Shown one piece after another: positions 1,271 through 24,037 of a DNA stretch of 64,000 nt (within the stretch, counting starts at the first letter, position 1; each line of letters opens with the position of its first letter). The notes under the pieces were generated by a model that saw nothing but the letters and a program-made list of their open reading frames with translations, made no database searches and was not told the DNA's origin. The position numbers were made by a program, and so were the translations under genes. The DNA comes from an uncultured Calditrichaceae bacterium. GTDB lineage: Bacteria > Calditrichota > Calditrichia > RBG-13-44-9. The stretch lies in the NCBI GenBank assembly GCA_964495805.1, contig CAZBWV010000038.1, forward strand, positions 14,676 through 78,675, given 5' to 3'.

Positions 1271-1284
1271 AGAAGTCCTCCAGA

Positions 1285-2211: not shown

Positions 2212-2265
2212 ATTATTGTCCGAAAGTGGATTACGCAGGTTTTGCTGAAAAGTTACCGGGCTTTA

Positions 2266-4206
2266 TTATTCCACATACAGCAGAATCATGGTCACGTCAT
2301 CACTTAGCTCTTTTCGGGCACTGAACCGCCGAATAGCTTCCAGAATCAGCTCCTTAAGCTGATGGGGTGGTGTTCCGTAATGTTTCTTAATCAAATTCAC
2401 CAATCGCTGTTCACCGAATTCCTGATCGCGCTTATTTTTCACTTCGGTCACCCCGTCGGTGTACAGGATGAGATAATCGCCGGATTTCAGTTCCACGGTT
2501 TCCTGACGATATTGCTGATCGGGCAGAAATCCCAGCACGATGCCACCGGTATCCAGCTGGCGGACGGACAGGTCTTTGCGCACCAGCAGAGGCGGATTGT
2601 GCCCTGCATTGGTAAAAGTAAATCGGCGGGTATGCCGATCGATGACGCCAAAGAAGAAGGTCGCATAATACCCTTCTGCGGTGGTTTCGGTGAGCAGGTT
2701 GTTCAACCTGGCTACAATTTCCACCACCGGATAAATTTCCTTGAGCAGGCTCTTGAACCCCGCATAAAGCATCGCCATCAAAATGGAAGCAGGTGCTCCT
2801 TTGCCGGACACGTCGCCAATGGCCAGCCCCAGCATATTCTGTGAAGTACGGAACACATCGAAAAAATCCCCCCCGACAATACGTGCGGGAATGTTTACCG
2901 TGCTAATCTGGAACCCTTCGAAACGGGGTGGGCGCTCCGGTAACAGCGCCTTCTGAACACGGGAGGCAATAAGCAATTCGCTCTCCAGCCGTTTTTTCAT
3001 AACCGCTTCTTCAAACAGCTGAGCGTTTGCAATGGCTATGACCGCCTGGCTGGCAAACGTCTCCAGCAGTTCCAGGTCTGCGGGGGTAAAATGGTTCAGC
3101 AAATCGCTTTCCACGGCAATCACCCCCATCACCTGGTTGCCATACAATAGCGGCACGGTAAGCTGAGAACGAGTGGATGGCCGCACTGAACAATATTCCG
3201 GTGAGCGGGAGACATCATTGATGATGCTTGGCTTTTTGGTGGCAATCACTTTGCCGTAGATTCCTTTGTTCAACTTCAGGTGGATTTTGTCCAGCAGTTT
3301 CGGGTCGTATCCCCGGGTGACCACCCGACGTAACTCTTTGCGATGACGATCGATGAGAAAAATCCCCCCGGCATCGAAACTTACCAGCTGACTGATGGAA
3401 TCCATAATGGCGTTGAGCACCTCATCCAGTTTCAGACTGGCGGAAATTTTCTTCCCCACCTCCAGCAGCAGCCTATCCTGCAACGACTTCCGCTTAACTT
3501 CCGAATACAGCTGGGCGTTTTCCATAATGTCCGATGTCTTCTGAAATACGCGAATAAACAATTCCCGAATACTGTGGAAATAAATGTATCGATTCAAAGA
3601 ACTATCGAACAGCAGAAAACCGATATGGCCTTTAAAACTAATCATGGGGAAAAAATAATAGAACCGGCCTTCCGGGAGGGTACTAAGCAATTCGTCAATC
3701 AGGGGATGTTGCCCGCGCAATTTATGCAGCGGATAAAAATTTACATTCTCTTTGAACAGATTGAGAAATCCTTTTTTATTTTCTACCTTAATCAAACTGG
3801 GCAGGGGTAAATCCGCGGGATGGTAAGCCATCAGCTCATAGTCGCGTCCCCAGCAAAGATAAAACGCCCAGGCATGGTCGGAAAAATTTTCCTGAAGGAA
3901 TTTTTTAAATTTCTGAATCAGCACCGGGTATTCCAGAGTGGCATTCAGTTCCCGATTAAATTGCTGGAAAGAAGTGGAGATGCGATACAACTCCTGATAA
4001 AAATTTCGATCCACAAAATTCCGAATAAAACGGGTGATCTCTTCATAGTAATACAATCCGGGGATCAGGACCAGAAAGAATGCCAACAGCGAGGAATGAA
4101 CTCCCAACCAGGAGAGAAAAACGGAAACAAGCACAAACCAAAGGGCGAACAGTGCACTGGTTAGCAGAATGCGTAATGTTTTTTTAAAAAAGGGGCTTTG
4201 CTTCAC
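2266..4206 (-). CDS. GAF-domain PP2C/SpoIIE (RsbU-like) serine phosphatase with N-terminal TM helices
   Basis: GAF region followed by PP2C motifs VGGDFFD, IGDVSGKG, NAGHNPP, YTDGVTE, DDVT; GTG start. Confidence 0.88.
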   Translation of the reverse strand: MKQSPFFKKTLRILLTSALFALWFVLVSVFLSWLGVHSSLLAFFLVLIPGLYYYEEITRFIRNFVDRNFYQELYRISTSFQQFNRELNATLEYPVLIQKFKKFLQENFSDHAWAFYLCWGRDYELMAYHPADLPLPSLIKVENKKGFLNLFKENVNFYPLHKLRGQHPLIDELLSTLPEGRFYYFFPMISFKGHIGFLLFDSSLNRYIYFHSIRELFIRVFQKTSDIMENAQLYSEVKRKSLQDRLLLEVGKKISASLKLDEVLNAIMDSISQLVSFDAGGIFLIDRHRKELRRVVTRGYDPKLLDKIHLKLNKGIYGKVIATKKPSIINDVSRSPEYCSVRPSTRSQLTVPLLYGNQVMGVIAVESDLLNHFTPADLELLETFASQAVIAIANAQLFEEAVMKKRLESELLIASRVQKALLPERPPRFEGFQISTVNIPARIVGGDFFDVFRTSQNMLGLAIGDVSGKGAPASILMAMLYAGFKSLLKEIYPVVEIVARLNNLLTETTAEGYYATFFFGVIDRHTRRFTFTNAGHNPPLLVRKDLSVRQLDTGGIVLGFLPDQQYRQETVELKSGDYLILYTDGVTEVKNKRDQEFGEQRLVNLIKKHYGTPPHQLKELILEAIRRFSARKELSDDVTMILLYVE

Positions 4207-4559
4207 CGAAAATCACTCCAAATCAGAAATTAAATATACCAGTTGGACGCTCTTGAAATCAAGATATTGAAAATTTAACCCTGTAGTGGGGAGGAAGTTT
4301 CCGGAAAAAAAATCGAATTAAACAGGAAGGGAACACGAAATCATCCGCCAGTAAATTACCAGATACAACTTTCTTTCCACCTCCCGGGAAGTCAATTATT
4401 CCGAACAGAATATCAGGAGAGGTGGAAGGATGCAGGGAATTCCGACAATGCAAGAAATTTTTCTTTTTTTTCAAAAAAATAAAAATTGCGGAACTTTGTG
4501 GCAAAATACGGGTTTGTTTAATCTAATTTATGTGAAGTTAAACTAAACCGGAACGTATC

Positions 4560-5462
4560 ATGAATTTATTCAAGCAAGTTGAAAATTGGAAGGACGTGCT
4601 GGATCGTCTTTCCGCCATCCGGGAACAAGAGGACTATACCCCCGAGAACGTGGAATACATTCGGGAGAGTCTGCAATCTCCCGACGAAAAAATTCGGGGT
4701 GGTGCAGCACTGGCGGCAGAAGGTTGCCTGCTGGAGCCGCACATTCTGGACCTGCTCATCCATCTGGCAGAAAACGATAGCAGTAACGCCATTCGCAAAG
4801 CCGCTCTGCAATCGCTGGGAGGCATTATTTACGAAGGTGTGATGCAGGATTTTGAATCGTCCACCGGGCCGGACACCGCCCTGGACGAATCTGAGGAGTG
4901 GGACGAAATTCAACTGGAAAGCTTGCGCGAGGATTACCTGCGCACCAAGAATCTGCTTTTCTCCATTCTGCAAAACGAAGAAGAAGATCTAGAAATACGC
5001 GAAGCGGCTCTGATGTCCCTGAGCAATTTAGGATTTCTGGAAGAGGTTCGCGAATGGATTTCCGATTTCATTCATATGCCGGAAGAATCCGCGCGACTGG
5101 TGGCATTACATGCCATGGGTAAATTCCCGCTCTATTGGATCCAGACTCTCAGCAAATTTCTGGAACCGGGACAACCCAAACCTCTTCTGTTAGAAGCCAT
5201 CAGCTCCAGTTATGCTTCGGATTCGGAACTACTGGCACGGAAGATCGAACAGCTCCTCTCCTCCGACGATCCGGATATTCTTTCGTACGCCCTGTTAACG
5301 CTGGCCAATCTGAACAAAACGGAAAATTTAGGCGAAATTTTACAGAACTTCAGCCTGCATCAGGATGAGCGGGTACGCAAAGCAGCACGAGAAGGGATTG
5401 AACACTTCACCCGACTCAATTTCGAACGCTACATCAAAGACGAATTTGGTTTTCAGGAATAG
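4560..5462 (+). CDS. HEAT-repeat protein
   Basis: Repeated acidic helical units (DEKIRGGAALA, NAIRKAALQSLG, LEIREAALMSL, ERVRKAAREGI). Confidence 0.75.
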   Translation: MNLFKQVENWKDVLDRLSAIREQEDYTPENVEYIRESLQSPDEKIRGGAALAAEGCLLEPHILDLLIHLAENDSSNAIRKAALQSLGGIIYEGVMQDFESSTGPDTALDESEEWDEIQLESLREDYLRTKNLLFSILQNEEEDLEIREAALMSLSNLGFLEEVREWISDFIHMPEESARLVALHAMGKFPLYWIQTLSKFLEPGQPKPLLLEAISSSYASDSELLARKIEQLLSSDDPDILSYALLTLANLNKTENLGEILQNFSLHQDERVRKAAREGIEHFTRLNFERYIKDEFGFQE

Positions 5463-5517
5463 CGATTCGGGAAAGTTTAACCGGATGTTTCATTTCAAGG
5501 AAGAAAACACCTGAATA

Positions 5518-5549
5518 CCGGCAGTTATTCTGCATGAAATAACTGCCGG
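5518..5549. terminator. Hairpin between the convergent HEAT and prk genes (probable bidirectional terminator)
   Basis: Perfect 12-bp stem ccggcagttatt / aataactgccgg with 8-nt loop. Confidence 0.7.
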
Positions 5550-5563
5550 AACAGGTACATTAT

Positions 5564-6496
5564 TTATTTTTCGGTTACCTTCAGCGTGTTCAACAGATGG
5601 TACACAATAAGCAGCTGAGTTAATGCCAGCGGATAGCTGATTTTTGTTACTTCACCATCCTGATATTCTCCGATGGTGGTGTTTCGCAACTCTTCAAATC
5701 CCGGTAAATGCCGCCAGATGGTCTCTTCCATTTCCTGAGCCTTTTCCGGCGGCGTGTCGCCGGTAATATGCAAAAAGTCCACCGGACGCCCCTCGTCGCG
5801 CCCAAGCGTGACTGAGATGCATTTGTTCCGCGCATTGGGTGTATCGTCGATGAAGTCGGAAAAATCGGGATGCGGAATGGTGGGACGCAGCACCAGATTC
5901 ACATTCAGATGCCCACCGGTTTCTTCCTTTTTCCCCTCCGGCCGATAGAAATTTACCACAATATCTGCATAGGAGCGCTGGGGACGGATGTAGGTTTTGG
6001 AATCGTGCTCCCTGGCTTTGATGGCTTTAAGCACTTCTTCTTCGGTGTAACCACGTTTGGTGGTATCCCGCTTTATTTTCCATTTAATGCGCAATTCTTC
6101 TTCCGGGTCCAGATACACTTTGACATCAAACACATCGCGCATCCGACGGGTGTAAAAAGGGAGCAATCCCTCAATAATCACAAAATCGCGTGGTTTCACG
6201 TACTCCGGCGGATCGAAATCGCCGGTGGAGTGGTTGTACACCGGTTTCAGGATCGGTTTGCCCTCCCGAAGCAGGCGGATGTGCTGCTCCATGATGTCGA
6301 TGTAGTTACAGTCCGGATGCAGGGCGGTAATACCCAATTCTTTACGCTGTTTCCGATTGTACTTGTGGTAATCATCCGCACAGATGTTGGTCACCCGGTC
6401 GGGTCCCAGAATTTTCTCAATCCCCTTGGAAATTGTCGTCTTACCAGCGGCACTATCCCCCACAATTCCCAGCATGATAGGTCCTTTTGGTCGCAT
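5564..6496 (-). CDS. prk: Phosphoribulokinase (cyanobacterial/Chloroflexi-like type)
   Basis: P-loop GIVGDSAAGKTT, ICADDYH, KPVYNHSTG, EGL, KIKRDTTKRGY. Start moved from the track's 6613 to ATG 6496, which follows an AAGGAG RBS. Lies in the RuBisCO cluster. Confidence 0.92.
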   Translation of the reverse strand: MRPKGPIMLGIVGDSAAGKTTISKGIEKILGPDRVTNICADDYHKYNRKQRKELGITALHPDCNYIDIMEQHIRLLREGKPILKPVYNHSTGDFDPPEYVKPRDFVIIEGLLPFYTRRMRDVFDVKVYLDPEEELRIKWKIKRDTTKRGYTEEEVLKAIKAREHDSKTYIRPQRSYADIVVNFYRPEGKKEETGGHLNVNLVLRPTIPHPDFSDFIDDTPNARNKCISVTLGRDEGRPVDFLHITGDTPPEKAQEMEETIWRHLPGFEELRNTTIGEYQDGEVTKISYPLALTQLLIVYHLLNTLKVTEK

Positions 6497-6621
6497 GACG
6501 TTTTCTCCTTCCTTTTTTATATTCCTGTGAAAAAAACACTCCTTTTCTGTCTTTACCCGAATATGGGCAAAGACTCTCTTTCCTTGTCCGGAAACTGACC
6601 GGCGAAGGCCCATGTTTCAGG

Positions 6622-7350
6622 TTATTTCTGCACTACTCTGCGAAACAGGTTCAAAGATTGAGCGTGTATGGTTTCCAGCAAGTTCAGATTGAATCCGGAA
6701 GCGCCCGGTGCCACTAAAATGGCATGGGCAAATGAGCTCCCGAAGGTGTAATCGTTATAAAACACCACCGTAGGAATTCCCGCTGCCACAGCCGCGCGAA
6801 GTCCTTCTTCGGAATCTTCCACTGCCAGGGTTTCTTCGGCAGCGTATCCGGTTTGCTCCAGACACATCGGATACAGTTTTCCTTCCGGGCCGGTCTTGGG
6901 ACCACTTTCTTTTCCCAGTATTACCCGGAAATGGGTGGCAAATTCGCTCAGCTGGTTCTGGAGCAGAGCCCGGATTTGCGTCTCGTAGGAGGTGGAGACA
7001 ATCGCCAGTTCCATGCCACGCTGGACCGCTTCGGCAATCAGTTCCCGGATACCCTCACGCAGGCGAAGCGTCGGTAAATATTTCTCGATGTAAATGCGCT
7101 GCTTTAACGGAGCAAACTTACTCACAATCTCTTCAATTTCCCCGGCGGGAAGACCCTGATCGGTCAGGGTCTTCCGCAACCGATTCACATTGCCCGGAAT
7201 AGGGAGCAGCTCCAGAAACTCCTCCCACGACCAGCGAATCGACAGTCCCAGCTGTTCCATGGCGTCGTTGCTGGCCGGGAGGTGACCGTACCGTTCACTA
7301 TCCACCAATGTTCCATCGACATCGAAAATCAGTAACTTCAATTCAGGCAA
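6622..7350 (-). CDS. cbbY: HAD-IA hydrolase, CbbY-like (xylulose-1,5-bisphosphate phosphatase)
   Basis: FDVDGTLVDSE motif I, LAIVST, AVEDSEEG; located between cbbM and prk; TTG start after a GGAG RBS. Confidence 0.8.
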   Translation of the reverse strand: MPELKLLIFDVDGTLVDSERYGHLPASNDAMEQLGLSIRWSWEEFLELLPIPGNVNRLRKTLTDQGLPAGEIEEIVSKFAPLKQRIYIEKYLPTLRLREGIRELIAEAVQRGMELAIVSTSYETQIRALLQNQLSEFATHFRVILGKESGPKTGPEGKLYPMCLEQTGYAAEETLAVEDSEEGLRAAVAAGIPTVVFYNDYTFGSSFAHAILVAPGASGFNLNLLETIHAQSLNLFRRVVQK

Positions 7351-7403
7351 CGCTTCACTCCTGCTTGATAAATGGGTCTCTGTTATGCGTCAAAACGTAT
7401 GGT

Positions 7404-8810
7404 TTATTCCAGAAAATCTTTCAGTTTTTCCCGCCATCCGGGATACAGGCGATCGGCGTCGTGCGGGAAGGAAACAAAAGCCCGGGCAAACGCGCGGTGT
7501 TCTTTGGCAAACTCAAACACATCCGCCCCTTCGCGCCACATCTGTTCGGCCTGGCGCATGGATTTGGCTCCTTCTGCCGGTCCGTCCACATGTCCGTAAC
7601 AGCCACCGCCAGCGGTCATAATCACGTTGGAGTGCCCCAGATTCTCGAAGAAACCGGGTGCGCGCAGGGCGTTCATTCCGCCGGAAATAATCGGCGTGGT
7701 GGGTTTCATACCCAGCCAATCCTGATGGTACATGGGTCCATCCGCCGCATCGGCTGTAATCATTTCGGCAATCATCTTGTCGTCCTTGTAACCTTCCATC
7801 TTCCCAAATCCCATGGTTCCCACATGGATTCCGGAGGCACCCTGCAACCGTGCCATTTTCGCCAGTACAAATGCCGAATAACCGCGGTTGGTGCGGGGAG
7901 AGGTCACCATTCCGTGACCGGCCCGGTGGTAATGCAGGAATTGATTGGGGAAGTGCCGTCGGGCAGTGGTAATCGCAGCGGGTCCACCGACAAATCCATC
8001 CACCAGAAAAGCCACGTGATGGGCAAATTCCCCGAACTGTTCCAGAATGTACTCTCCACGGGCAATCATTTCGAACGGATCATCTGCGGTAATGTTGGCA
8101 GAAAAGAGTTTGGCCTTGCCGGTCTTGTCCTGAGCGCGCTTCATGGCATCCACCACCAGGGGAATCACCTTCTTCATCGGAGCAAAAACCTGATTGCCCT
8201 GCGGTTCGTCATTCTTAATAAAATCGCCTTCCAGCCAGAACTCATAGGCTGCTTTGGCAAATGGCTCGGGTCGCAAACCCAGCTTGGGTTTAATGATGGT
8301 TCCCACAATAAAACCACCGTTCACCACCGGACGTCCCAGCACGCGCCACAAATCGGCAATTCCCTTGGAGGGTCCATCGAACAGCTGCAAATAGCGCGGC
8401 GGGAAATAAAAATCGTACATCTTGGCATATTCAATATCTGCCATTCCCTGGTTATTCCCAATGGCCAGAGTCAGAAACGACACAATCATTGCCCGTCCAT
8501 CGATGATGTTGCGATCGAACAGTTCCACCGGATAAGCGATTTTCATTTCTTCCTTTTCCGGGTCGATAAAATAAACCGTCGCATCGATTTTACGGGTGAA
8601 ATCGTCAGTCGTTTTCACCTCCACATTGGTGCCGGTGGAAGATTCCGCAGCAAAGTGCGCCGCCGCCCGTAAATAATCCCCGGGGGATTTCGGATCGGGA
8701 TAGTGTTTGGGATTGGGTTTCATCTTGTAGTAAGCCAGCACAAAATCCCCGCTGCGGATTAAATCCTCTTCTTTGAGATTCAGATTGGTGTACCGGAGAG
8801 ATTGATCCAT
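7404..8810 (-). CDS. cbbM: Ribulose-1,5-bisphosphate carboxylase/oxygenase, Form II
   Basis: MDQS start, [61 protein letters not shown]: the full catalytic set. AAAGGAG RBS; no small subunit nearby. Confidence 0.98.
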
Positions 8811-8907
8811 GATTAAACTCCTTTATGTTTTATAACTCCGTTATTTTTAAAATAAGACATGTGATATTTTTCTTTTTTTGAATATTCTATTCCAATATGG
8901 CAAACGT

Positions 8908-9897
8908 TTAATCGTATTGAATGGAACTGATGCGCATGAGTTTTTCGAAGGAATGATGCGATTCAATGTAGCGAATGGTACCGGTTTTTCCCCGCATGAC
9001 CATGGAGTGAGTCACGGCTCCGCGACCGGTGTACCGCACTCCTTTCAGGAAAGTGCCTCCGGAGATACCGGTGGCAGCAAAGAAGATGTCGTCGCTGGTA
9101 ATCAGCTCATCAACATTCAGTATGCGGTTGATGTCGTATCCCGCAGCCAGCACGTTCTCTTTTTCTTTTTCAGATTGAGGGTCCAACCGGGCTAATATTT
9201 CGCCACCCAGAATTTTAATCGCTGTGGCAGCCAGCACACCCTCCGGTGTTCCGCCGGTTCCCATCATCACATCCACATCGGAATCCGGAGAAACCGCCAT
9301 CAGCGCCCCGGCCACATCGCCATCGGTATGTAACTGAATGCGTGCACCCGCCTTGCGAATGTCCGCAATCAGTTGCTGATGCCGGGGTTTGTCCAGTACA
9401 AATACCACCAGATCGTCCACATCCTTACCTAATGCTTTGGCAATGTTTTTCAGATTATCTTCCACAGGTGCTTCCAGATCGATGACATTTCGGGCTTCCG
9501 GACCTACCACCAATTTTTTCATATAAAAAGCTGGTCCGGGATTAAACATGGTGCCCCGCGGGGCAATGGAAATGACCGAAATCGCATTGGGGCGTCCAAA
9601 AGCCAGCAAACGCGTCCCCTCCACCGGATCTACCGCCACATCCATTTTGGGACCCTTACCGGTACCGACCCGTTCTCCGTTGTAGAGCATGGGTGCCTGA
9701 TCTTTCTCTCCTTCTCCGATCACCACAATGCCATCGATGTCGATCACGTTAAAGCTCATCCGCATGGCATCCACAGCGGCGCCGTCTCCGGCTTCCTTAT
9801 CCCCCTTGCCCAGCCAGCGGGCAGCAGCCAGGGCGGCTGCTTCGGTTACCCGAACCAGGTCCAAAGCCAGATTTCGTTGAGGTGCTTCTTTCGCCAT
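8908..9897 (-). CDS. glpX: Class II fructose-1,6-bisphosphatase (probable FBP/SBPase)
   Basis: RVTEAAA, AVDAMR, VIGEGEKD, AVDPVEGT, DGDV, GGTPEGV. Confidence 0.95.
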   Translation of the reverse strand: MAKEAPQRNLALDLVRVTEAAALAAARWLGKGDKEAGDGAAVDAMRMSFNVIDIDGIVVIGEGEKDQAPMLYNGERVGTGKGPKMDVAVDPVEGTRLLAFGRPNAISVISIAPRGTMFNPGPAFYMKKLVVGPEARNVIDLEAPVEDNLKNIAKALGKDVDDLVVFVLDKPRHQQLIADIRKAGARIQLHTDGDVAGALMAVSPDSDVDVMMGTGGTPEGVLAATAIKILGGEILARLDPQSEKEKENVLAAGYDINRILNVDELITSDDIFFAATGISGGTFLKGVRYTGRGAVTHSMVMRGKTGTIRYIESHHSFEKLMRISSIQYD

Positions 9898-10026
9898 GAT
9901 TCTTTCTCCATATATTTATTTTGATTTCACCCGTGGTCTGCTTCGCATAGCTTCCCGAAACCGGGAACTGAGCAGACCCCACAGGTTTGGTTTTTTAGCC
10001 ACTGAATTGGAACAAACCGTACCGAT

Positions 10027-10707
10027 TTACACAGCTACTTCGCCAGAAATGGCACGATTGGCGGACTGGCGGATGTCATTCATTGCCTGGACAATATCCG
10101 GAGCACGGAAGATGGCACTTCCGGCTACCAGCACATTGGCTCCACTGCGCGCCACCTCCGCTGCCGTCTCGGGATTCACCCCACCGTCCACTTCCAGATA
10201 AATGTCTCGACCCACTTCCTGAATCATCCGGCGGGCGCGTGCAATTTTATTCAGCCCCTGCCGAATGAATTTCTGTCCCCCAAAACCGGGATTCACGGTC
10301 ATAATTAACAGCAGGTCCATGTCCTCCAATACGTCCTCGATGGTGCTCAGGGAAGTAGCGGGATTCAGGGAAACGCCGGCTTTAATCCCGTGCTGATGAA
10401 TGTTCTGGATGGTACGGTGCAAATGGGTACAGGCCTCCTGATGCACGGTCAGGATGTCGGCGCCCGCTTCCACATAATCGTCGATGTACAAATCGGGATT
10501 GGAAATCATCAGGTGCACGTCCAGCGGAATATCTACAATCCGTTTGATGGTTTTCACCATATTGGGACCAAAGGTCAAATTGGGAACAAAATGCCCGTCC
10601 ATTACATCGATGTGAATAAAATCGGCGCCGTTTTCCGCCACCCGGCGAACCTGCTCTTCCAGCTTCAGTAAATCTGCCGATAGAATTGAGGGTGCGATGA
10701 GAACCAT
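10027..10707 (-). CDS. rpe: Ribulose-phosphate 3-epimerase
   Basis: IAPSILSAD, HIDVMDGHFVPNLTFG, MTVNPGFGGQ, EVDGG, LVAGSAIF. Confidence 0.97.
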   Translation of the reverse strand: MVLIAPSILSADLLKLEEQVRRVAENGADFIHIDVMDGHFVPNLTFGPNMVKTIKRIVDIPLDVHLMISNPDLYIDDYVEAGADILTVHQEACTHLHRTIQNIHQHGIKAGVSLNPATSLSTIEDVLEDMDLLLIMTVNPGFGGQKFIRQGLNKIARARRMIQEVGRDIYLEVDGGVNPETAAEVARSGANVLVAGSAIFRAPDIVQAMNDIRQSANRAISGEVAV

Positions 10708-10751
10708 AATTGCCTCTTTTTCTGGTTAAGTGATCTGGTTGCGTGCCAGGA

Positions 10752-10808
10752 AACCAACCCGATGGAATCGGGAACCCTGACAATTCCCGATTCCACCATC
10801 GGGAGGTT
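10752..10808 (-). other. Long intergenic hairpin immediately after the fba stop codon
   Basis: ggaatcgggaa (10764-10774) pairs with ttcccgattcc (10784-10794), and cccgatgg (10758-10765) pairs with ccatcggg (10796-10803). Confidence 0.65.
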
Positions 10809-10809
10809 A

Positions 10810-11733
10810 TTATGCTTTGTTGGAACTTCCCAGCACATTGCGAATCTTGTGTTGTACCATTGCTTTCACCGCATCGCGGGCGGGTCCCAGATACTTACGC
10901 GGATCGAAATTTTCCGGATGTTCCCACAGTTCCTTCCGCACCGTAGCGGTAATTGCCAGACGAATATCCGTATCGATATTAATTTTGCACACGCCGTATT
11001 TGGCCGCCTCGCGGAGCATCTCTTCCGGCACACCGCGGGCACCACCAATCTTACCACCGTACTTGTTCGCCATCTCCACAAATTCCTGCGGAACCGAAGA
11101 GGCGCCGTGCAACACCAGCGGATATCCCGGCAGCAGTTCGGTAATCTTTTTCAGTCGCTCAAAATCCAGCTTCGGTTCACCGGAAAACTTGTACGCACCA
11201 TGACTGGTACCAATGGCAATCGCCAGCGAATCACATCCGGTTCGCTGAACAAATTCCACGGCCTGATCGGGATCGGTAAATACACTCTTCTCCGCCACGA
11301 CGTGTTCCTCGATTCCGGCTAATTGTCCCAGCTCCGCTTCGACCCATACACCTCGTTCGTGGGCATAATCCACCACTTTTTTGGTAATGGCAATATTTTC
11401 CTCGTAGGGCAAATGTGAACCGTCAATCATCACCGAAGTAAATCCACCGTCAATCACTTCCTTACAGATTTCGAAATTGGCGCCGTGGTCCAGATGCAGT
11501 ACAACCGGTACGTTGCTCTCTTCCACCGCTGCTTCCACCATTTTAATAATGTAGTTATGGCCGGCATATTTACGGGCACCGGCGGAAATCTGCAGAATCA
11601 CCGGCGAACGCTCTTCCTCAGCTGCCCACATAATTCCCTGCAAAATCTCCATGTTGTTCACGTTAAAGGCGCCAATGGCATACTTCCCTTCGTACGCTTT
11701 GGGAAAAATCTCTTTGGGTGTAGTTAATGGCAT
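10810..11733 (-). CDS. fba: Class II fructose-bisphosphate aldolase
   Basis: GAFNVNN, LHLDHG, SVMIDGS, EAELG, AIGTSHG, LVLHGASS, KINIDTD; start set at ATG 11733 after an AGGAGG RBS. Confidence 0.96.
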   Translation of the reverse strand: MPLTTPKEIFPKAYEGKYAIGAFNVNNMEILQGIMWAAEEERSPVILQISAGARKYAGHNYIIKMVEAAVEESNVPVVLHLDHGANFEICKEVIDGGFTSVMIDGSHLPYEENIAITKKVVDYAHERGVWVEAELGQLAGIEEHVVAEKSVFTDPDQAVEFVQRTGCDSLAIAIGTSHGAYKFSGEPKLDFERLKKITELLPGYPLVLHGASSVPQEFVEMANKYGGKIGGARGVPEEMLREAAKYGVCKINIDTDIRLAITATVRKELWEHPENFDPRKYLGPARDAVKAMVQHKIRNVLGSSNKA

Positions 11734-11815
11734 GTTCAGCAACCTCCTTCTTTCTAATTTTTTGATATCATTATTGATTAAGAATTATTTCGTCAAATTT
11801 TCACCCATTCTGTCC

Positions 11816-13831
11816 TCAGGCTTTTTGTTCCTTATACTGCTGGTACTTTTCCCGAATCAACGGGACCAGATGCTGGGGGGTGAATCCGTACGCTTCTTCC
11901 AGCTTCTGATAGGGTGCGGAATTGCCGAACCGGTTCAGACCGTACACAAAACCGTGGCACCCGGTGTATTTTTCCCACCCAAAAGTCACCCCTGCTTCGA
12001 TGGCCACACGAAATTCCACCTCCCCGGGGAGTACTTTCTCCCGGTATTCCCGGGGTTGCTCGTCAAACAGTTCGGTGGAGGGCAGGCTTACCACACGTAC
12101 TTTGAACTCCTGTTCCAGTTCGCGGGCAATCTTCAGAGCCAGATGGACTTCCGAACCGGTAGCGATGAGAATCATATCCGGTGTTTCCTGCTCGTTACCG
12201 TAAATAATGTACCCACCGCGTCGCACTCCTTCAGCGGAAGCAAGACGGGAACGATCCAGAACGGGAAGTTTTTGCCGGGTCAGGATGAGTGCAGTGGGAC
12301 GCTTCGTCTCTTCCATCGCCATTTGCATGGCGACTGCGGTTTCCGTGGCGTCTGCGGGACGCATTACAATGAAGTTGGGAATTGCCCGCAAAGATGCCAA
12401 ATGTTCCACGGGCTGGTGTGTGGGACCATCCTCACCCACATAGAAGGAATCGTGTGTGAACACATGCAAAACCGGGACATGCTGCATGGCACTTAACCGC
12501 AAAGCAGGACGCTCGTAATCGGCAAACACCAGGAAGGTGGCACCAAACGGGCGCAATCCGCCGTGTAGTGCCATTCCGTTCAGTAACGCACCCATGGGGA
12601 ACTCCCGCACACCAAAAGCAAAGTTACGTCCGGCGGGATTGTCAGGGGAGAAGTCACCCACTTTTTCCATAAAGGCACGGGTGGCGTTGGACGGTTCCAG
12701 GTCGGCTGAGCCACCCACCAGATGCGGTAACTGATCGGCCAGCGCTGCCAGCACTTTACCGAACGCCGCACGGGTAGCGATGGAATCGCCAGCGTTGAAT
12801 TCGGGCAGGTCAAACTTTTCCGGTAATTTGCCCTCTCCCACAAATTCCCACAATTTTTGAAACTGTGTATCGCCTTTTAATTTTTCCTGTAAACGCTTAT
12901 TCCATTCCGCTTCTGCCTGGCGAAGTTGATCGAAGCGGGAACGGAAGTAATCCACCACATCATCCGGTAAATAAAACGTTTTGTCGGGAGGTAATCCTAA
13001 TTTCTCTTTGGTTGCGGCAATTTCTTCCGGTGGAAGGGGGGCACCATGGGTTTCGTGGTCACCTTCGCGGGTAGCCGCACCCTTGGCCATTACCGTATCC
13101 CCGATAATCAGACTGGGTTTATCGGTAACCTGTTGGGCGGCCAGAATGGCGGCACGAATTTGTTCGTGATTGTGCCCGTCAATTTCCTGCACATGCCACT
13201 GGAATCCACGAAACACTTCGGCAATGTCGGTACTGTCCGCCCGTGTGGTGGGACCGGATATCTGAATTCGATTTCGATCGTAAAACATAATCATTTTCCC
13301 GATTTTCAGATGTCCCAGGATTGCCGAAGCGCCCAATGCCACCGGTTCCTGCAAATCGCCATCCCCGGCCAGCACATACGTGTAATGATTCATGATGTCT
13401 TCGCCCAGCATGGTGCGCAGCAGCACCTCGGCAATGGCCATACCGCCACCCATACCCACACCCTGCCCCAGCGGACCGGAAGTGGCTTCCACCCCGGGGG
13501 TCAAATCCGCTTCCGGATGACCGGGGGTTAAGCTGCCAAACTGACGAAATTCTTTTAAATCGTCTAACTTTAAATAACCGATCAGGGTGAGCAGGGAATA
13601 AAGTAGCATGGACTCGTGACCGGCAGAAAGCACAAAACGATCGCGATTAAACCAATCCGGATTCTCCGGGCTAAAACGAAGAAATTCCTTGAATACCACA
13701 TACGCCATATCAGCAGAGGACATGGCTCCACCAGGATGCCCTGAATTCGCTTTGCGGGTGGCATCCAGAATAAGTCCCTTGATAACCGCAACAACTTTCT
13801 GATCCATGGAAGCATTGGATTGTGTACTCAT
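11816..13831 (-). CDS. tkt: Transketolase
   Basis: SGHPG, DRFVLSAGH, TPGHPE, GPLGQG, GDGDLQE, THDSFYVGEDGPTHQP; probable start MSTQSN at 13831 (track starts at 13939). Confidence 0.96.
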   Translation of the reverse strand: MSTQSNASMDQKVVAVIKGLILDATRKANSGHPGGAMSSADMAYVVFKEFLRFSPENPDWFNRDRFVLSAGHESMLLYSLLTLIGYLKLDDLKEFRQFGSLTPGHPEADLTPGVEATSGPLGQGVGMGGGMAIAEVLLRTMLGEDIMNHYTYVLAGDGDLQEPVALGASAILGHLKIGKMIMFYDRNRIQISGPTTRADSTDIAEVFRGFQWHVQEIDGHNHEQIRAAILAAQQVTDKPSLIIGDTVMAKGAATREGDHETHGAPLPPEEIAATKEKLGLPPDKTFYLPDDVVDYFRSRFDQLRQAEAEWNKRLQEKLKGDTQFQKLWEFVGEGKLPEKFDLPEFNAGDSIATRAAFGKVLAALADQLPHLVGGSADLEPSNATRAFMEKVGDFSPDNPAGRNFAFGVREFPMGALLNGMALHGGLRPFGATFLVFADYERPALRLSAMQHVPVLHVFTHDSFYVGEDGPTHQPVEHLASLRAIPNFIVMRPADATETAVAMQMAMEETKRPTALILTRQKLPVLDRSRLASAEGVRRGGYIIYGNEQETPDMILIATGSEVHLALKIARELEQEFKVRVVSLPSTELFDEQPREYREKVLPGEVEFRVAIEAGVTFGWEKYTGCHGFVYGLNRFGNSAPYQKLEEAYGFTPQHLVPLIREKYQQYKEQKA

Positions 13832-13876
13832 GTTCGAACCTTTTGTTTTGGGTTTAACAAATGATGCTTTATTTGA

Positions 13877-13893
13877 TACAACCTTTATGCCAG
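13877..13893 (-). promoter_or_regulatory. Candidate sigma54 -24/-12 promoter for the cbb operon
   Basis: Minus strand CTGGCATAAAGGTTGTA versus consensus YTGGCACGrNNNTTGCW; GG-N10-G spacing is exact; -12 dinucleotide is GT rather than GC; about 45 nt upstream of the tkt ATG. Confidence 0.6.
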
Positions 13894-13982
13894 ATAGACA
13901 TGGGAACGATAAAAACACCGTTAAGCCGTATAGAAACAAATGGATGACGGTAATTTGCAGCGATCGGAAGAATCACACAGCT

Positions 13983-14010
13983 TGTGCCACACATGGCACA
14001 CCTGTGCCAT
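13983..14010. promoter_or_regulatory. Triple alternating half-site array (candidate activator binding site)
   Basis: GTGCCA 13984-13989, TGGCAC 13994-13999, GTGCCA 14004-14009, forming two overlapping palindromes at a 10-bp period. Confidence 0.65.
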
Positions 14011-14772
14011 GTATTTTTCTCCCCCTATAAAATCTGTCAAACCCTTCAAGGAGGAATTGTGTGAAGCGGCGATACTCGAAATGAATTAAATTTTTGCCCG
14101 AATATATGGTAGTTGTGTATAGTGGTCACGCTCAAAACAAGATTTTAATTTAATAATTGTTACATTGACAAAAAATAGATTGCATTTGGCCGACTTTCAT
14201 AAAATTAGATTTGACCCAGGAAACTTAGAAAAAACAAAAAGGTCATCATTAGAAATCAAAATATTAGATTGAATTCGTGTACCGGTCAAGTGGATTTTAG
14301 AGAAAACGAAATTCATCAAAAAGTTAAAATATGTACAAATGTGCGAACTCCATTTGCCCACGGTAAGGCGCCTTTGAGATTCAGCAATCCGTTAAACTTC
14401 TGAATGTCTTTCCGACCGAAGGAAGGTCACGTCCAGCGTTTTGTTCTCCACCGTGGCGTTGTCCCACATAGCTTCCGATGATGATGTGCCGGACACACGG
14501 GTCAACGGAATCATCCGCCATGCGATCTCAGGTGTCCTGATTGTAGCGAAAATTTTACATTTCCTTGCTTCGTGGATAGCTTATTGTGGCAAATCCAGTG
14601 TTTGTTTGTACAAATCAAAATACCATTGTTTCCGGTCAATTACATTTCACCACCTAACAATCCTGAGGATATATGCCATCATCGGGTATGGCTTTCCATT
14701 TTTTCCAGTTCTGCCCGGGTGTGTTTTTTGCAATCAGGTTTTTCTGCAAAAGGATTCAGTGGGTTAAAGCGG

Positions 14773-16104
14773 TTACAAGCCGTATTTTTTCATCAACCGA
14801 TAGAAGGTTCGGCGGGGAATCCCGGAAATCCGGGACGCTTCGCTGATGTTCCCACCCGCCCGGTGAATGTACTCGATCAGCGCCTGTTTTTCGTATTTTT
14901 CCATTAACCGGGAACGCTGACGCCGAAAGTCTCCGTCCGCTCGTACGTCCGGTTCCAGAGGGGCAAAAGTAATGGAAAGGTGTTCCGGTAAAATGGTGTC
15001 GCCCGTGCACAAAATGACCGCCCGTTCAATTACGTTTTCCAGTTCTCGCACGTTGCCGGGCCAGTGGTAATTTTTCAGAATCTCCAGCGCCTGATCGGAA
15101 ATCTTTTCCACCCGTTTGTTGAGCTTTTCCTCCGCGCGGGTCAAAAAGTGATAGGCCAGATAGGGAATATCCACCTTCCGTTCGCGTAGCGGGGGTAAAA
15201 AAATGGTAAACGTGTTAAACCGGTAAAACAGGTCTTTGCGAAACTGCCCCTGTTCAATGGCTTCTTCCAGATTTCGGTTGGTGGCAGCGATGATGCGTAC
15301 CTTCACATATTTCACTTCCGAAGAACCGACCGGCCGAATCTCTCCGGTTTGCAAGAACCGCAGGAGCTTCGCCTGTAAACTTAACTCCATGTCTCCGATT
15401 TCGTCCAAAAAGATGGTGCCTCCGTGGGCTTCTTCCAACAACCCTTTGCGGTCCTGTTCGGCACCGGTAAAAGCGCCCTTTTTGTACCCAAACAGTTCGC
15501 TTTCCATCAGCGAAGCGGTTAAAGCGGTGCAGTTCAGGGAAATGAATGGTTTGTCCCGCAAATGGCTGGCCTGATGGATAGCCCGGGCAACCATCTCCTT
15601 TCCGGTACCGGTCTCACCCCGCAGCAGAACTGTGGTGGGAGTCGGTGCGACACGCTTTACCAGTTCCATCACACTCTGCATCTGAGGCGACTTGGCTACC
15701 ATCCAGCGTGCATCGGGTAAATGCTGCTCCAGTTCCCGCTGAACGGTTAAATACCGCTCCCGGTACTCCTCCTTCTGCTTGCATTTTTCCACCAGCGCCC
15801 ACATAAAATGCGCGCTCTTCCCGTCGATGATTTCACACTGTTCCGATTTACACCGGTGTAACTGACGGGTTACTTCCCGGTCGCCGGTTACATTGACTGC
15901 AATATCCAGCCGGGGGTCGGCACAATAGGGTGCCCAGTGCCGTGCTACCGGAATATCGTGCTCCTGCGCAAAGCGAATGCCCGGTGCCTTCAGATTCTTA
16001 TCCACCACCGCCAGAATTTCCACTTCGGGCAGTTCTTGCAACAATTCCAGCAAATGCAAGCCGCCTTTCCCGGCTCCGACAACCAGTATGGTAATTGAGG
16101 ACAT
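14773..16104 (-). CDS. Sigma54-dependent transcriptional activator (bEBP) with N-terminal Rossmann-like domain and Fis-type HTH
   Basis: N-terminal ILVVGAGKGG...LAVVD; AAA+ motifs GETGTGKE, ELFGYKKGAFTGA, FLDEIG, AATNR, WPGNVREL; HTH GGNISEASRISGIPRRTFYRLMKKY. Confidence 0.95.
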   Translation of the reverse strand: MSSITILVVGAGKGGLHLLELLQELPEVEILAVVDKNLKAPGIRFAQEHDIPVARHWAPYCADPRLDIAVNVTGDREVTRQLHRCKSEQCEIIDGKSAHFMWALVEKCKQKEEYRERYLTVQRELEQHLPDARWMVAKSPQMQSVMELVKRVAPTPTTVLLRGETGTGKEMVARAIHQASHLRDKPFISLNCTALTASLMESELFGYKKGAFTGAEQDRKGLLEEAHGGTIFLDEIGDMELSLQAKLLRFLQTGEIRPVGSSEVKYVKVRIIAATNRNLEEAIEQGQFRKDLFYRFNTFTIFLPPLRERKVDIPYLAYHFLTRAEEKLNKRVEKISDQALEILKNYHWPGNVRELENVIERAVILCTGDTILPEHLSITFAPLEPDVRADGDFRRQRSRLMEKYEKQALIEYIHRAGGNISEASRISGIPRRTFYRLMKKYGL

Positions 16105-16208
16105 AAGCTTCGTTCTTCTAAGAATTTATCCAAACAAATTTAACGAATTTTCTGACAAAAGCCAACTCAACGAAGGGAAAAGGGGGAAGAAACTCAATCC
16201 GGGTTGTT

Positions 16209-17495
16209 CTAACGCCCTTCCCCGGTTTTAATTAATGAATAACGGAAAAGTACCGGTCCGACAATTTGATTCATCGCCACCGAAGCAATCACCAGCGTGC
16301 GGATGCTGGTTCCCACCACTCCGGGGAAGGTGGTACTGACCAGGCTCACCAGTCCCAGGGTAAGGCCCGCCTGCCCCACAAACCCCATCCAGCCAAGCTT
16401 CTGCACCTCCGCTGTGGAGCCGGTGAGCCGCCCTCCCACATAGGTTCCGGCAAAGGTGGTGACCATGCGCAATACCACTATGGTAATCGCCAGAGATAAA
16501 TTTCCGTAGAACACAGGCAAATCCAGCGATGCACCGGCGATAGCAAAGAAGGTTACGTAGATGGGTAGCGAACCTTTCTCGATGGCTTCAATCAGCTGAT
16601 GCCCCTCGTCGCTGAAATTCTGTACCAGAAAGCCTGCCACCATAAACATCAGCACCAATTCCACGTGCAGCATCACCGACACATCGATACCGAACAGAAC
16701 GAACCCCAACAAAAATAGCGCAGTTTGCGTGCGCACATATTTCAAATAGAGCAGAATCAGCGCACCCGCCGCCGCCCCTACCACCATGGAGAGGAACAGT
16801 TCCCACAATACTTCCAGGATGTAATGAAAATGCAGCATTTCGCCGGGCACGATCAGCGGCCGGGCAACGGAAAGTGCCACGGAAAAGAGCAACACTACCA
16901 CAATATCTTTAAAGATGGTGACTCCCAGCACAAAATCAGTGAAATTGCCCCGGGCATTGGTTTCGGTGATAATGGCAATGGTGGTTGCCGGAGAGGTTGC
17001 CACAGCCAGCGAACCGATAATCAGTGCAATTCCCAGCAAAATGGAAGTGGACGAATGCTCCAGAAATGAGACCTGCCCCCCCAGAAAAACAAAGAAAAGA
17101 ATAAATCCGGGCAGCACAAATAGTATCTGAAACAGGATAACGAAATTAATGGTTTTAAATTGCCGTCGCATGGTGCGGTACCGAAATTCACCACCTGCAG
17201 TCAGAGCAATGAGTCCCAGCGCAATTTTATCGATGAGCTGAAGATTCAAGACACTTTGTTCGGAGATGGTGCCCAGTACAAACGGTCCGAACACAATACC
17301 GGCCAGCAAATATCCGGTGATTTGCGGCAGATTAAACCGAAGGGCGATTTTACCGAAAAGGAAAGCCACCAGCAGCACGAAGCCAAGTGCCAGCATACTC
17401 TCGGGCATGGTGTTGTTTCGCTCCGCCAGCGGTAAATGCAGCAATCCCCACATCAGCACCGAGAACAATCCCAGAAAAACGAGAATCCGTTTCAT
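16209..17495 (-). CDS. Cation:proton antiporter family protein (CPA2-like)
   Basis: About 12 TM segments; LPQITGYLLAGIVFGP, ATSPATT, GVTIFKD, FFAIAGASL. Confidence 0.85.
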   Translation of the reverse strand: MKRILVFLGLFSVLMWGLLHLPLAERNNTMPESMLALGFVLLVAFLFGKIALRFNLPQITGYLLAGIVFGPFVLGTISEQSVLNLQLIDKIALGLIALTAGGEFRYRTMRRQFKTINFVILFQILFVLPGFILFFVFLGGQVSFLEHSSTSILLGIALIIGSLAVATSPATTIAIITETNARGNFTDFVLGVTIFKDIVVVLLFSVALSVARPLIVPGEMLHFHYILEVLWELFLSMVVGAAAGALILLYLKYVRTQTALFLLGFVLFGIDVSVMLHVELVLMFMVAGFLVQNFSDEGHQLIEAIEKGSLPIYVTFFAIAGASLDLPVFYGNLSLAITIVVLRMVTTFAGTYVGGRLTGSTAEVQKLGWMGFVGQAGLTLGLVSLVSTTFPGVVGTSIRTLVIASVAMNQIVGPVLFRYSLIKTGEGR

Positions 17496-18688: not shown

Positions 18689-18860
18689 GTCGATACGGTC
18701 CCGGTTTCAAAAGATGGGAAGGTACACCGGAAAAGGAAATCTGTTTGCACGGTTGCAAAGATGCTCCTTCCCGCTGAGTGCATTTCCGATTGGTTTCTCC
18801 TCTAAACAGAAAACTGCGGAGAAGCCTCCAATCCGCTATCCGCCAATCCCATCTAATTAC

Positions 18861-22531: not shown

Positions 22532-23284
22532 TTACATTTGATGGATTGCCCGGGCAAACTCCTGCAGGTAGTTCAAATTTCCCTGGGTTTCGAAAAAGTT
22601 TCCCACCACCACGAATCGGGCACCCGCATCAACTTTGCGGGCTGCTTCTTCCGGAGTCCGGATTCCCCCACCGACGATCACCGGAATGGACACCACCTGC
22701 GAAACCGCCTGAATCATCTCCTCCGGCACGGTCAGTCGCGCTCCGCTGCCGGCTTCCAGATAAATCATTTTGAACCCCAGAAATTCGGCAGCCAGAGCAT
22801 GAGCCAGTGCCAGGTCCGGTTTGTCCCGGGGAATCGGTTTGGTGTTGCTCATAAACTCCGCGCTGGTGATACCACCCGATTCAATTAGCATGTAAGCACA
22901 GGAAATGGGTTCGATGCCCAGGCGCCAGATTATTGGCGCTGCCTGCACCTGGGTGTCGATTAAATGGGTGGGATTGCGACCGCTAATCAGGGACAGGTAC
23001 AGAATGGCATCGGCGTGGGCGGAAATCTGGCGTAAACTACCCGGAAAAATCACCACTGGCATCCCATCGGATGCCTGTTTGACCCGGGCGACAAACTCAT
23101 CAAAATTTTCCTGAAGCATCAGGGAACCCCCAATAAACAGCACGTCCACACCCTGTGCCTTCATTTCCGAAACCGCTTCCTCCACCTGTTCCAGGGCAAG
23201 TTTATCCGGATCCAGCAACAATACAAACCCTGCCCCTTTTTCCCGTTGAATGGTCTGAAGTCGTTCGAACGTATCTGTTCTCAT
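22532..23284 (-). CDS. Geranylgeranylglyceryl-phosphate synthase family, group II-like
   Basis: LLLDPDK, FIGGS, IFPG, SLISGRNP, YMLIESG, YLEAGSGA, VGGGIR. Confidence 0.9.
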   Translation of the reverse strand: MRTDTFERLQTIQREKGAGFVLLLDPDKLALEQVEEAVSEMKAQGVDVLFIGGSLMLQENFDEFVARVKQASDGMPVVIFPGSLRQISAHADAILYLSLISGRNPTHLIDTQVQAAPIIWRLGIEPISCAYMLIESGGITSAEFMSNTKPIPRDKPDLALAHALAAEFLGFKMIYLEAGSGARLTVPEEMIQAVSQVVSIPVIVGGGIRTPEEAARKVDAGARFVVVGNFFETQGNLNYLQEFARAIHQM

Positions 23285-24019: not shown

Positions 24020-24037
24020 TATAAGGAGAAATTTACC

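Follow-up and report, generated by a model that had tools for sequence, protein, structure and literature searches.

Members of the Calditrichota are mostly described as heterotrophs that degrade proteins and polysaccharides (PMC7329443, PMC9769843), and the presence in one of them of a compact set of Calvin-Benson-Bassham (CBB) cycle genes raises the question of whether those genes form a native, working pathway, how their expression might be controlled and what they might do for the cell. The locus lies in a 64,000-nucleotide stretch (hereafter the window; 64 kb) of contig CAZBWV010000038.1 from an uncultured Calditrichaceae bacterium (assembly GCA_964495805.1). Seven co-oriented open reading frames (ORFs) on its minus strand, tkt-fba-rpe-glpX-cbbM-HAD (CbbY-like)-prk, occupy positions 5564-13831, and a gene for a sigma-54 enhancer-binding protein stands directly upstream of tkt on the same strand. 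It seems probable to us that this is a functional, inducible CBB operon in a Calditrichia chromosome, served by a sigma-54 promoter and a dedicated activator.

Calvin-cycle potential is not in itself new to the phylum. Ward et al. (2019) described seven Calditrichaeota metagenome-assembled genomes (MAGs) from Jinata Onsen, most of them with a putative Calvin cycle, unlike earlier-described members (PMC6759342), and a 2025 follow-up counted one Calditrichota MAG among the genomes positive for the reductive pentose phosphate cycle and proposed the group as iron-oxidising primary producers (PMC12501874). The RuBisCO of the Jinata Onsen-type MAGs has been termed "form-I Anaero" (PMC12216891), and a Form I enzyme from Calditrichaeota is mentioned elsewhere as well (PMC12663927). 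A reading of the window from its letters alone (the sequence-only reading) had suggested unrecognised autotrophy; given these reports, all with Form I enzymes, that was an overstatement, and the operon is not a first for the phylum. What is new is the combination of a Form II RuBisCO from an insertion-bearing clade, a short class-II-like phosphoribulokinase (PRK) and a sigma-54 activator with conserved sites that replaces CbbR. Our literature search, which covered work outside subscription journals, found no paper tying Calditrichota to Form II RuBisCO and none linking a sigma-54 activator with a cbb operon.

The operon and its enzymes

The ORFs of the window were scored against NCBIfam and Pfam profiles, with curated bit cut-offs for the NCBIfam equivalogs (Table 1). 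Profile scores and alignments bear out the gene order and the intact RuBisCO and PRK motifs given in the sequence-only reading, and they place the diagnostic enzyme pair and the regeneration enzymes in one cluster: cbbM and prk lie 0.9 kb apart on the same strand, and tkt, fba, glpX and rpe are encoded with them, each above its cut-off. Spacers inside the operon measure 53-129 bp, and a motif resembling a Shine-Dalgarno site precedes all seven genes. An independent assembly also calls the tkt product as 671 aa.

By profile and alignment CbbM is a bona fide Form II RuBisCO, and carboxylase activity is predicted for it. Over its full length the protein aligns with the R. palustris enzyme 4LF1 (E 4.8e-237), every active-site motif being identical (AAESSTGTN, the carbamylated-lysine/metal-ligand motif, loop 6, SGGMNA and TAGGG), and it falls below the cut-offs of other forms (229 vs 497 bits for the Form III model TIGR03326; <50 bits for MtnW-type models). 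The roles of the carbamylated lysine, the metal ligands, the loop-6 lysine and the phosphate-binding glycines are well established from RuBisCO structures. No match to a RuBisCO small subunit came from the ORFs scanned within the cluster and beside it.

What sets this CbbM apart is an insertion of 7-8 residues at about residues 33-45, with the pattern (S/N)xxHYx(D/N)PxSxxDY, which is common to a set of Form II sequences 465-473 residues long and absent from all of the 459-464-residue proteobacterial and Marinimicrobia-type sequences examined. In a neighbour-joining tree (rough, and not a maximum-likelihood one) the insertion-bearing sequences form one large clade, with the Calditrichota as a tight subclade inside it; the few members that carry a name come from MAGs assigned to Bacteroidota, Cyclobacteriaceae, Phaeodactylibacter, KSB1/Deferribacteres and Calditrichota, with no named proteobacterium among them. 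When one genome is taken per GTDB species, the closest CbbM sequences come from a Calditrichia MAG (94% identity), a Calditrichota MAG (87%) and a MAG named as Bacteroidota (78%), and those of Proteobacteria reach at most 77%. Dinoflagellate Form II polyproteins also ranked high, through the summed scores of their repeat units; at 59-67% identity they are no closer than bacterial sequences, and we rejected them as near relatives.

The PRK is likewise distinctive. It fails the proteobacterial (class I) model (NF011997, 44 bits vs a cut-off of 362), has 27-29% identity with the PRKs encoded in the Form II loci of Proteobacteria, and matches the cyanobacterial/plant-type subfamily NF005655 over profile positions 4-315 of 326, with the motifs GDSAAGKTT (P-loop), DDYH, YNH and KIKRD conserved. 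Its best PDB matches, all of them full length, are 9QKO, 9QKP and 9QKN (E 1e-107 to 1e-114; best 9.6e-114), whereas canonical cyanobacterial, plant and archaeal PRKs align only to its N-terminal two thirds. Named relatives at 60-68% identity belong to the Desulfovibrionales, Dissulfurimicrobium and Chloroflexota. In redox-regulated PRKs the pair of cysteines addressed by thioredoxin and CP12 is Cys16/Cys55; the P-loop cysteine of that pair is missing here (GDSAAGKTT vs GDSGCGKST in cyanobacterial PRK). The true start of prk is almost certainly the ATG at 6496 (310 aa), which is preceded by GGAAGGAG. An ATG further upstream, at 6613, was considered and rejected: homologues are 308-310 aa long, and alignments with solved structures leave out everything in the longer ORF before residue 44.

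The two phosphatases of the operon call for more guarded names. GlpX is likely to be both the fructose-1,6-bisphosphatase (FBPase) and the sedoheptulose-1,7-bisphosphatase (SBPase) of the cycle, the latter role being assigned by analogy with known GlpX-type enzymes in CBB operons. The cbbY label given to the HAD gene in the sequence-only reading holds in one respect, namely that the best PDB relatives of its product are the CbbY proteins of Arabidopsis (4UAV, 9.8e-23) and R. sphaeroides (4UAR, 9e-20), well ahead of a beta-phosphoglucomutase-like protein at 4e-12; otherwise the protein matches generic HAD families only and passes no curated family cut-off except that of generic HAD-IA. The position of the gene is conserved in three related loci discussed below (L004, L087 and L085). 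With the name taken from its best structural relatives, the product is plausibly a xylulose-1,5-bisphosphate phosphatase. The fba-rpe spacer contains a hairpin, found in a terminator-like scan, which may be an intra-operon RNA structure that acts in differential mRNA stability or as an internal attenuator; scans for sigma-70 promoters and terminators gave results not above shuffled expectation.

Host, assembly and selection

The sequence-only reading proposed a non-proteobacterial host of Calditrichota or KSB1 type, and the relatives of two genes settle on the first of these. All named relatives at 81-88% identity of a serine hydroxymethyltransferase gene 17 kb from the operon are Calditrichia, Calditrichaeota or Calditrichae MAGs, and together with the closest CbbM sequences they place the host, a deep-sea bacterium, in the Calditrichota (Calditrichia). 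The flanking markers on which the proposal had leaned were recovered in part: a group II geranylgeranylglyceryl-phosphate synthase (GGGPS) and DUF4136 genes are present in the flanks, but no S46 peptidase was found in any ORF of at least 90 residues scanned against Pfam. With the GGGPS, a bacterial genome encodes an ether-lipid enzyme of archaeal type.

The cluster region is not chimeric, a point left for checking by the sequence-only reading. A contig from ENA is collinear with the window at 99.80% identity over 17.1 kb (window 1712-18812), a Logan contig from a different run matches at 99.97% identity over 7.0 kb, and together the two span both junctions between cluster and flanks.

The same operon is found in other members of the phylum. 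The Calditrichota MAG Dive96_bin3.123 (L004; JAJRXE010000112.1), the closest complete relative and from a black smoker on the Southwest Indian Ridge, holds the complete operon from activator to prk in the same order and at 61-87% amino-acid identity, its activator homologue (69%) included and in the same position. This is contrary to the description given in the study from which the Dive96 MAGs come, which places Calditrichota among heterotrophs "absent of carbon fixation pathways" (PMC9769843). A second Calditrichota MAG contig (L087) has the same order from tkt to prk, and over both loci identities range from 61 to 90%. In comparisons with these two Calditrichota MAGs, the ratio of nonsynonymous to synonymous substitution rates (dN/dS) is 0.03-0.19 wherever it can be computed (cbbM 0.04-0.05, prk 0.07), with dS saturated. 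Because dN/dS is low and synonymous sites are saturated, these alignments indicate that the operon genes have long been maintained as functional within the phylum, under purifying selection.

The putative activator, its candidate sites and the neighbourhood

No LysR-family ORF, and so no CbbR, stands beside the cluster. The gene directly upstream of tkt encodes a protein with an AAA+ sigma-54 interaction domain that includes the GAFTGA loop and with a Fis-type helix-turn-helix (HTH) at its C-terminus, and we regard this protein as the putative dedicated activator of the Calvin operon. The named enhancer-binding equivalogs (NifA, NtrC, NorR, PrpR and others) all score below their cut-offs and match the AAA+/HTH part only, and in a HMMER search of representatives with the activator only about 10 clusters (at 50% identity) share its full-length architecture.

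The N-terminal domain may be the more informative part of the protein. Its first ~100 residues gave no Pfam match above threshold and no assignment as a receiver, GAF, PAS or V4R domain. Within them are a GxGxxG motif (GAGKGG) and, where the second strand ends, an aspartate (Asp35); an alignment of 12 full-length relatives shows no variation at G10 or G12 and hardly any at D35. An AlphaFold2 model computed from the single sequence (predicted local distance difference test score, pLDDT, 73) has a beta-alpha-beta Rossmann topology, and its top Foldseek matches in the PDB (DmpF 1NVM, GenD2 6NOR and members of Gfo/Idh/MocA) are enzymes dependent on NAD(P), with E values of 5e-5 and weaker. Judging from the modelled fold, this Rossmann-like domain probably senses a nucleotide or redox signal.

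The distribution of the activator follows that of the short PRK. We compared 85 Form II loci, counting as an activator homologue a protein of at least 50% identity encoded by a gene adjoining cbbM. Such a homologue occurs only where the PRK is of the short type: in the Dive96 MAG; in three Black Sea MAGs from 150 m labelled Marinimicrobia or Bacteroidetes (L051, L055 and L057); and in the cultured sulfate reducer Fundidesulfovibrio putealis (L085; GCA_000429325.1, contig AUBQ01000023.1, locus 1-11215) together with a matching Logan contig (L086). No activator homologue adjoins cbbM in any locus whose PRK is of the class I type or that lacks a recognisable PRK; nearly all such loci are proteobacterial. 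A metagenome scan with the activator was uninformative on this linkage, since the matches listed were to generic AAA+ motifs; among the 80 loci kept, none matched the N-terminal domain or had CBB neighbours. Because CbbM is shared with one set of lineages and the PRK and activator with another, we read the Calditrichota operon, from its sequence relationships, as a mosaic of a RuBisCO from the KSB1/Bacteroidota insertion clade with a PRK and an activator of the Marinimicrobia/Desulfovibrionales kind.

The region between activator and tkt contains candidate elements for control of this type. TGGCAT-AAAGG-TTGTA, a sigma-54-type -24/-12 promoter-like element, is the one place in the 64 kb, both strands counted, that fits TGGCAY-N5-TTGT (0.33 expected). 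About 100 bp upstream of it are three TGGCACA/TGTGCCA half-sites; TGGCACA occurs nine times in the 64 kb, a total equal to chance expectation, and it is the clustering of three of the nine within 13983-14009 that constitutes the signal. We suggest that this cluster is a putative upstream activating sequence for the enhancer-binding protein. The whole spacer is AT-rich and, at 941 bp to the tkt ATG, unusually long, and the promoter-like element and the sites account for only its last ~180 bp; the stretch from 13940 to 14772 holds one doubtful 108-codon ORF on the plus strand (14441-14767). No RNA family matched when Rfam was run over the whole window, and a riboswitch or leader therefore does not explain the length of the spacer.

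Both kinds of element recur in the related loci. A GGCAY-N5-TTG[T/G] element stands 5' of the first CBB gene in both Calditrichota MAGs (L004 and L087), in F. putealis and in two of the Black Sea MAGs (L051 and L055). In the Calditrichota pair it lies at -56 to -59, with half-sites at -156 to -197; F. putealis has the element at -108 and four half-sites at -212 to -252; and L051 and L055 have TGGCAT-N5-TTGT at -112. The third Black Sea locus, L057, has TGGAAT-N5-TTGTA, plus four TGCGCCA/TGGCGCA sites at -151 to -245. The layout corresponds to the classical arrangement of an enhancer-binding protein and a sigma-54 promoter, with membership of the promoter class putative.

Several neighbouring genes deserve mention in their own right. 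Directly upstream of the activator, the stretch 16209-18688 contains a CPA2-type cation/proton antiporter-like gene and, upstream of it and overlapping it by 4 bp on the same strand, an ORF of 398 residues without a match to any family; downstream of the operon is a gene for a HEAT-repeat protein. The window encodes two large sensor-PP2C (SpoIIE) phosphatases (2266-4206 and 54927-57074), of which one carries a GAF domain and the other Cache, HAMP and PDC domains. The gene at 2266-4206 lies two genes downstream of prk, in a neighbourhood conserved in the Logan assembly. Rubrerythrin and ferritin-like genes are adjacent at 23516-24535, and a hemerythrin-domain gene at 35971-36414, with a GC content of 0.34 against ~0.45-0.53 for all its neighbours and a third-codon-position GC content (GC3) of 0.38, may be a recent acquisition.

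Table 1. Features of the window discussed in the text, with coordinates in window positions; paired scores are bits against the curated cut-off.
Feature	Position	Strand	Evidence
prk, short class-II-like phosphoribulokinase, 310 aa	5564..6496	-	NF005655, 428 vs 236
HAD-IA phosphatase, CbbY-like	6622..7350	-	generic HAD models only (Pfam, NCBIfam)
cbbM, Form II RuBisCO, 468 aa	7404..8810	-	NF010002, 825 vs 489
glpX, class II fructose-1,6-bisphosphatase	8908..9897	-	TIGR00330, 397 vs 259
rpe, ribulose-phosphate 3-epimerase, 226 aa	10027..10707	-	TIGR01163, 304 vs 213
Hairpin, 17-bp stem, fba-rpe spacer	10760..10798	-	terminator-like scan
fba, class II fructose/sedoheptulose-bisphosphate aldolase, 307 aa	10810..11733 (or 11742)	-	TIGR01859, 392 vs 343; Pfam F_bP_aldolase, 5.8e-114
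tkt, transketolase, 671 aa	11816..13831	-	TIGR00232, 748 vs 682
Sigma-54-type -24/-12 promoter-like element, TGGCATAAAGGTTGTA	13877..13892	-	pattern match; GGCAT starts 60 bp and element ends 46 bp before tkt start codon
Three TGGCACA/TGTGCCA half-sites in 27 bp, including perfect 16-bp palindrome TGGCACAGGTGTGCCA	13983..14009	.	158-178 bp upstream of tkt ATG
Sigma-54 enhancer-binding protein, 443 aa	14773..16104	-	Pfam Sigma54_activat 9.5e-72, AAA_lid_14, HTH_8 2.1e-10
Geranylgeranylglyceryl-phosphate synthase, group II (PcrB/GGGPS)	22532..23284		NF003198, 284 bits, above cut-off

Physiological role and comparison with known systems

We picture the operon working as follows. The activator would bind the TGGCACA/TGTGCCA sites ~100 bp upstream of the promoter and switch the operon on, with transcription from the sigma-54 promoter upstream of tkt. 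PRK would make ribulose-1,5-bisphosphate, which the Form II RuBisCO would carboxylate; housekeeping pgk, gap and tpi, encoded elsewhere, would serve to reduce the carboxylation product, and the aldolase, the GlpX-type FBPase/SBPase, transketolase and the epimerase would regenerate pentose phosphates, with the CbbY-like phosphatase clearing the inhibitory by-product xylulose-1,5-bisphosphate. The outcome would be net assimilation of CO2, by facultative lithoautotrophy or mixotrophy, at low O2 and high CO2, the niches that Form II RuBisCOs suit. The rubrerythrin, ferritin-like and hemerythrin genes suggest an oxygen-sensitive or microaerophilic lifestyle, which would fit a low-specificity Form II enzyme, and all of these, together with relatives from chimneys and reduced habitats, fit facultative lithoautotrophy or mixotrophy. 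Net CO2 assimilation is the most likely physiological role, although the window does not by itself decide among autotrophy, mixotrophy and redox balancing.

A number of observations weigh against this reading. The 64 kb contain no pgk, gap, tpi or rpi, and no hydrogenase, sox or cyc2 gene, so that an electron source for autotrophy is hypothetical; rpoN is likewise absent from the window. The -12 element reads TTGT, or TTGG in relatives, where TTGC is canonical, although the spacing and the -24 element fit. The model of the activator's N-terminal domain was built from one sequence and is of moderate confidence only. NAD(P)H sensing is not a family-wide property, since GxGxxG is degenerate in the F. 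putealis homologue and the N-terminus of the Marinimicrobia homologue is shorter. The flanks of the operon differ among the three Calditrichota loci, which means that the block has moved or its neighbourhoods have been rearranged, and lateral movement at some time in the past is likely. Composition agrees only in part: the cluster's tetranucleotide correlation with the rest of the window is 0.87, vs 0.91-0.97 for other 8-kb windows, although the GC3 of the operon genes, 0.55-0.60, is that of the flanking genes. Finally, activity and expression of the operon are predicted from sequence.

Some of these points could be taken to mean that the cluster is not native, and is instead a proteobacterial fragment misplaced in assembly or binning, or a recent transfer now in decay. 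Its GC content is slightly higher, its tetranucleotide correlation is lower, the flanks vary and Form II genes are known to move laterally. We find this explanation hardly credible, and it has been largely refuted: three assemblies share identical junctions, CbbM belongs to a clade with no named proteobacterium, neither the PRK nor the activator is of proteobacterial type, and strong purifying selection has preserved the operon in three Calditrichota lineages that have diverged from one another. The lower tetranucleotide correlation fits highly conserved enzymes or an old transfer, and not a chimera. A second alternative accepts the genes as native but has PRK and RuBisCO form a shunt outside the full cycle, recovering carbon from pentoses or nucleosides in the manner of Form III or II/III pathways or of the PRK/RuBisCO shunt of oilseeds. 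The short PRK subfamily also occurs in organisms not known as autotrophs (Desulfovibrionales, Chloroflexota), and rpi is not in the cluster, but such a shunt is very improbable for an enzyme so far under the Form III cut-off, encoded with tkt, fba, glpX and rpe genes that are needed only for cyclic regeneration; nor did family scans of the ORFs find an AMP phosphorylase or a ribose-1,5-bisphosphate isomerase near the operon.

The alternative closest to our own reading is that the cycle is a redox valve only. As in photoheterotrophic purple bacteria, CO2 would take up electrons so that a cell growing heterotrophically or by fermentation could re-oxidise its NAD(P)H, and the cycle would not support autotrophic growth. 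Rhodospirillum and Rhodopseudomonas use Form II RuBisCO in redox balancing, and F. putealis, a bearer of the same module, is not known to be an autotroph. If modelled fold and motif are a guide, a Rossmann domain like those that bind NAD(P) would fit redox-gated induction, a pure electron-sink role included, and Calditrichota are, as noted, mostly regarded as heterotrophs. We nevertheless think it unlikely that the cycle serves as a valve alone. A sink function is compatible with net fixation, the set of dedicated regeneration enzymes is full, like that of facultative autotrophs, a sensor role for the N-terminal domain is putative, and related habitats, hydrothermal chimneys and iron-rich springs, are rich in lithotrophic donors (PMC9769843, PMC12501874). 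Net CO2 assimilation by an inducible CBB operon thus remains the reading that we prefer.

If so, the implications go beyond this genome. Members of the phylum abound in marine sediments and on hydrothermal deposits, and the usual view is that they live by degrading protein and polysaccharide; with an operon that is intact, under selection and regulated separately, some of them would be able to fix CO2 in the dark ocean, a capacity that metabolic surveys have sometimes missed. The operon also bears on how the Calvin cycle is wired outside the Proteobacteria, where activator and short PRK accompany Form II RuBisCO in three phylum-level lineages and no CbbR goes with them. Going further, we tentatively raise the possibility, without holding it to be the likelier case, that the activator is the founding member of a class of dedicated, CbbR-independent Calvin regulators. 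Its NAD(P)-binding-type Rossmann domain would read the redox state of the cell, and the protein would turn on a mobile module made up of activator, short PRK, GlpX, Form II RuBisCO and CbbY-like phosphatase. Such a module would have spread among anaerobic or microaerophilic Calditrichota, Marinimicrobia and Desulfovibrionales, giving nominal heterotrophs redox-gated CO2 fixation. Since F. putealis is in culture, the regulation, the sensed signal and the physiological role are open to experiment.

F. putealis and the Marinimicrobia-type loci of the Black Sea are among the systems most like the one described here, in that the genes for the activator (52-57% identical), the short PRK (50-65%) and Form II RuBisCO adjoin one another; in F. 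putealis the cluster further includes glpX, the HAD gene, tkt, fba and rpe, and the same TGTGCCA/TGGCACA sites lie upstream of glpX. Its gene order differs, however, with the activator inside the cluster and gap included (tkt-(two redox genes)-fba-gap-rpe-activator-glpX-prk-cbbM-HAD), and the CbbM proteins of F. putealis and of the Marinimicrobia type lack the insertion and are 66-71% identical to that of the window. We found no paper on the Calvin cycle in F. putealis. The Form II loci of KSB1 and Bacteroidota MAGs resemble the window in the opposite respect: they encode the closest CbbM proteins outside the Calditrichota (78-81%), with the same insertion and with glpX and rpe adjacent, but in the KSB1 relative, whose locus sits beside core ribosomal genes, the order rpiB-rpe-glpX-cbbM is followed by a 287-aa PRK of proteobacterial type (29% identity), and no homologous activator adjoins it. 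The short PRK itself shares its P-loop, DDYH, YNH and KIKRD motifs with the solved enzymes 9QKO, 9QKP and 9QKN (Hyella/Chroococcidiopsis PCC 6712). These are named "cyanobacteria specific phosphoribulokinase", whereas the window enzyme is the sole PRK of a Form II operon; our search found no publication on the activity of the 9QKO and 9QKP enzymes.

The best-known counterparts are the cbbII-type operons of Proteobacteria (cbbF-P-T-G-A-M in Rhodobacter sphaeroides; the Form II loci of Rhodopseudomonas and Thalassovita), which cluster the same enzyme set with a Form II RuBisCO, a PRK and a CbbY-type phosphatase. Their CbbM proteins are 70-77% identical to that of the window and lack the insertion of 7-8 residues. 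Where those operons have the LysR-type CbbR, the window has a sigma-54 activator and a -24/-12-type promoter-like element, and it differs from them further in its short class-II-like PRK (27-29% identity), its GlpX-type FBPase and its Calditrichota host. The Jinata Onsen MAGs, from iron-rich hot springs, belong to the same phylum, have a predicted CBB cycle and come from a group otherwise viewed as heterotrophic (PMC6759342, PMC12501874). Their RuBisCO is reported to be of Form I ("form-I Anaero", L8S8; PMC12216891, PMC12663927), whereas the lineage of the window has a Form II enzyme and no small subunit.

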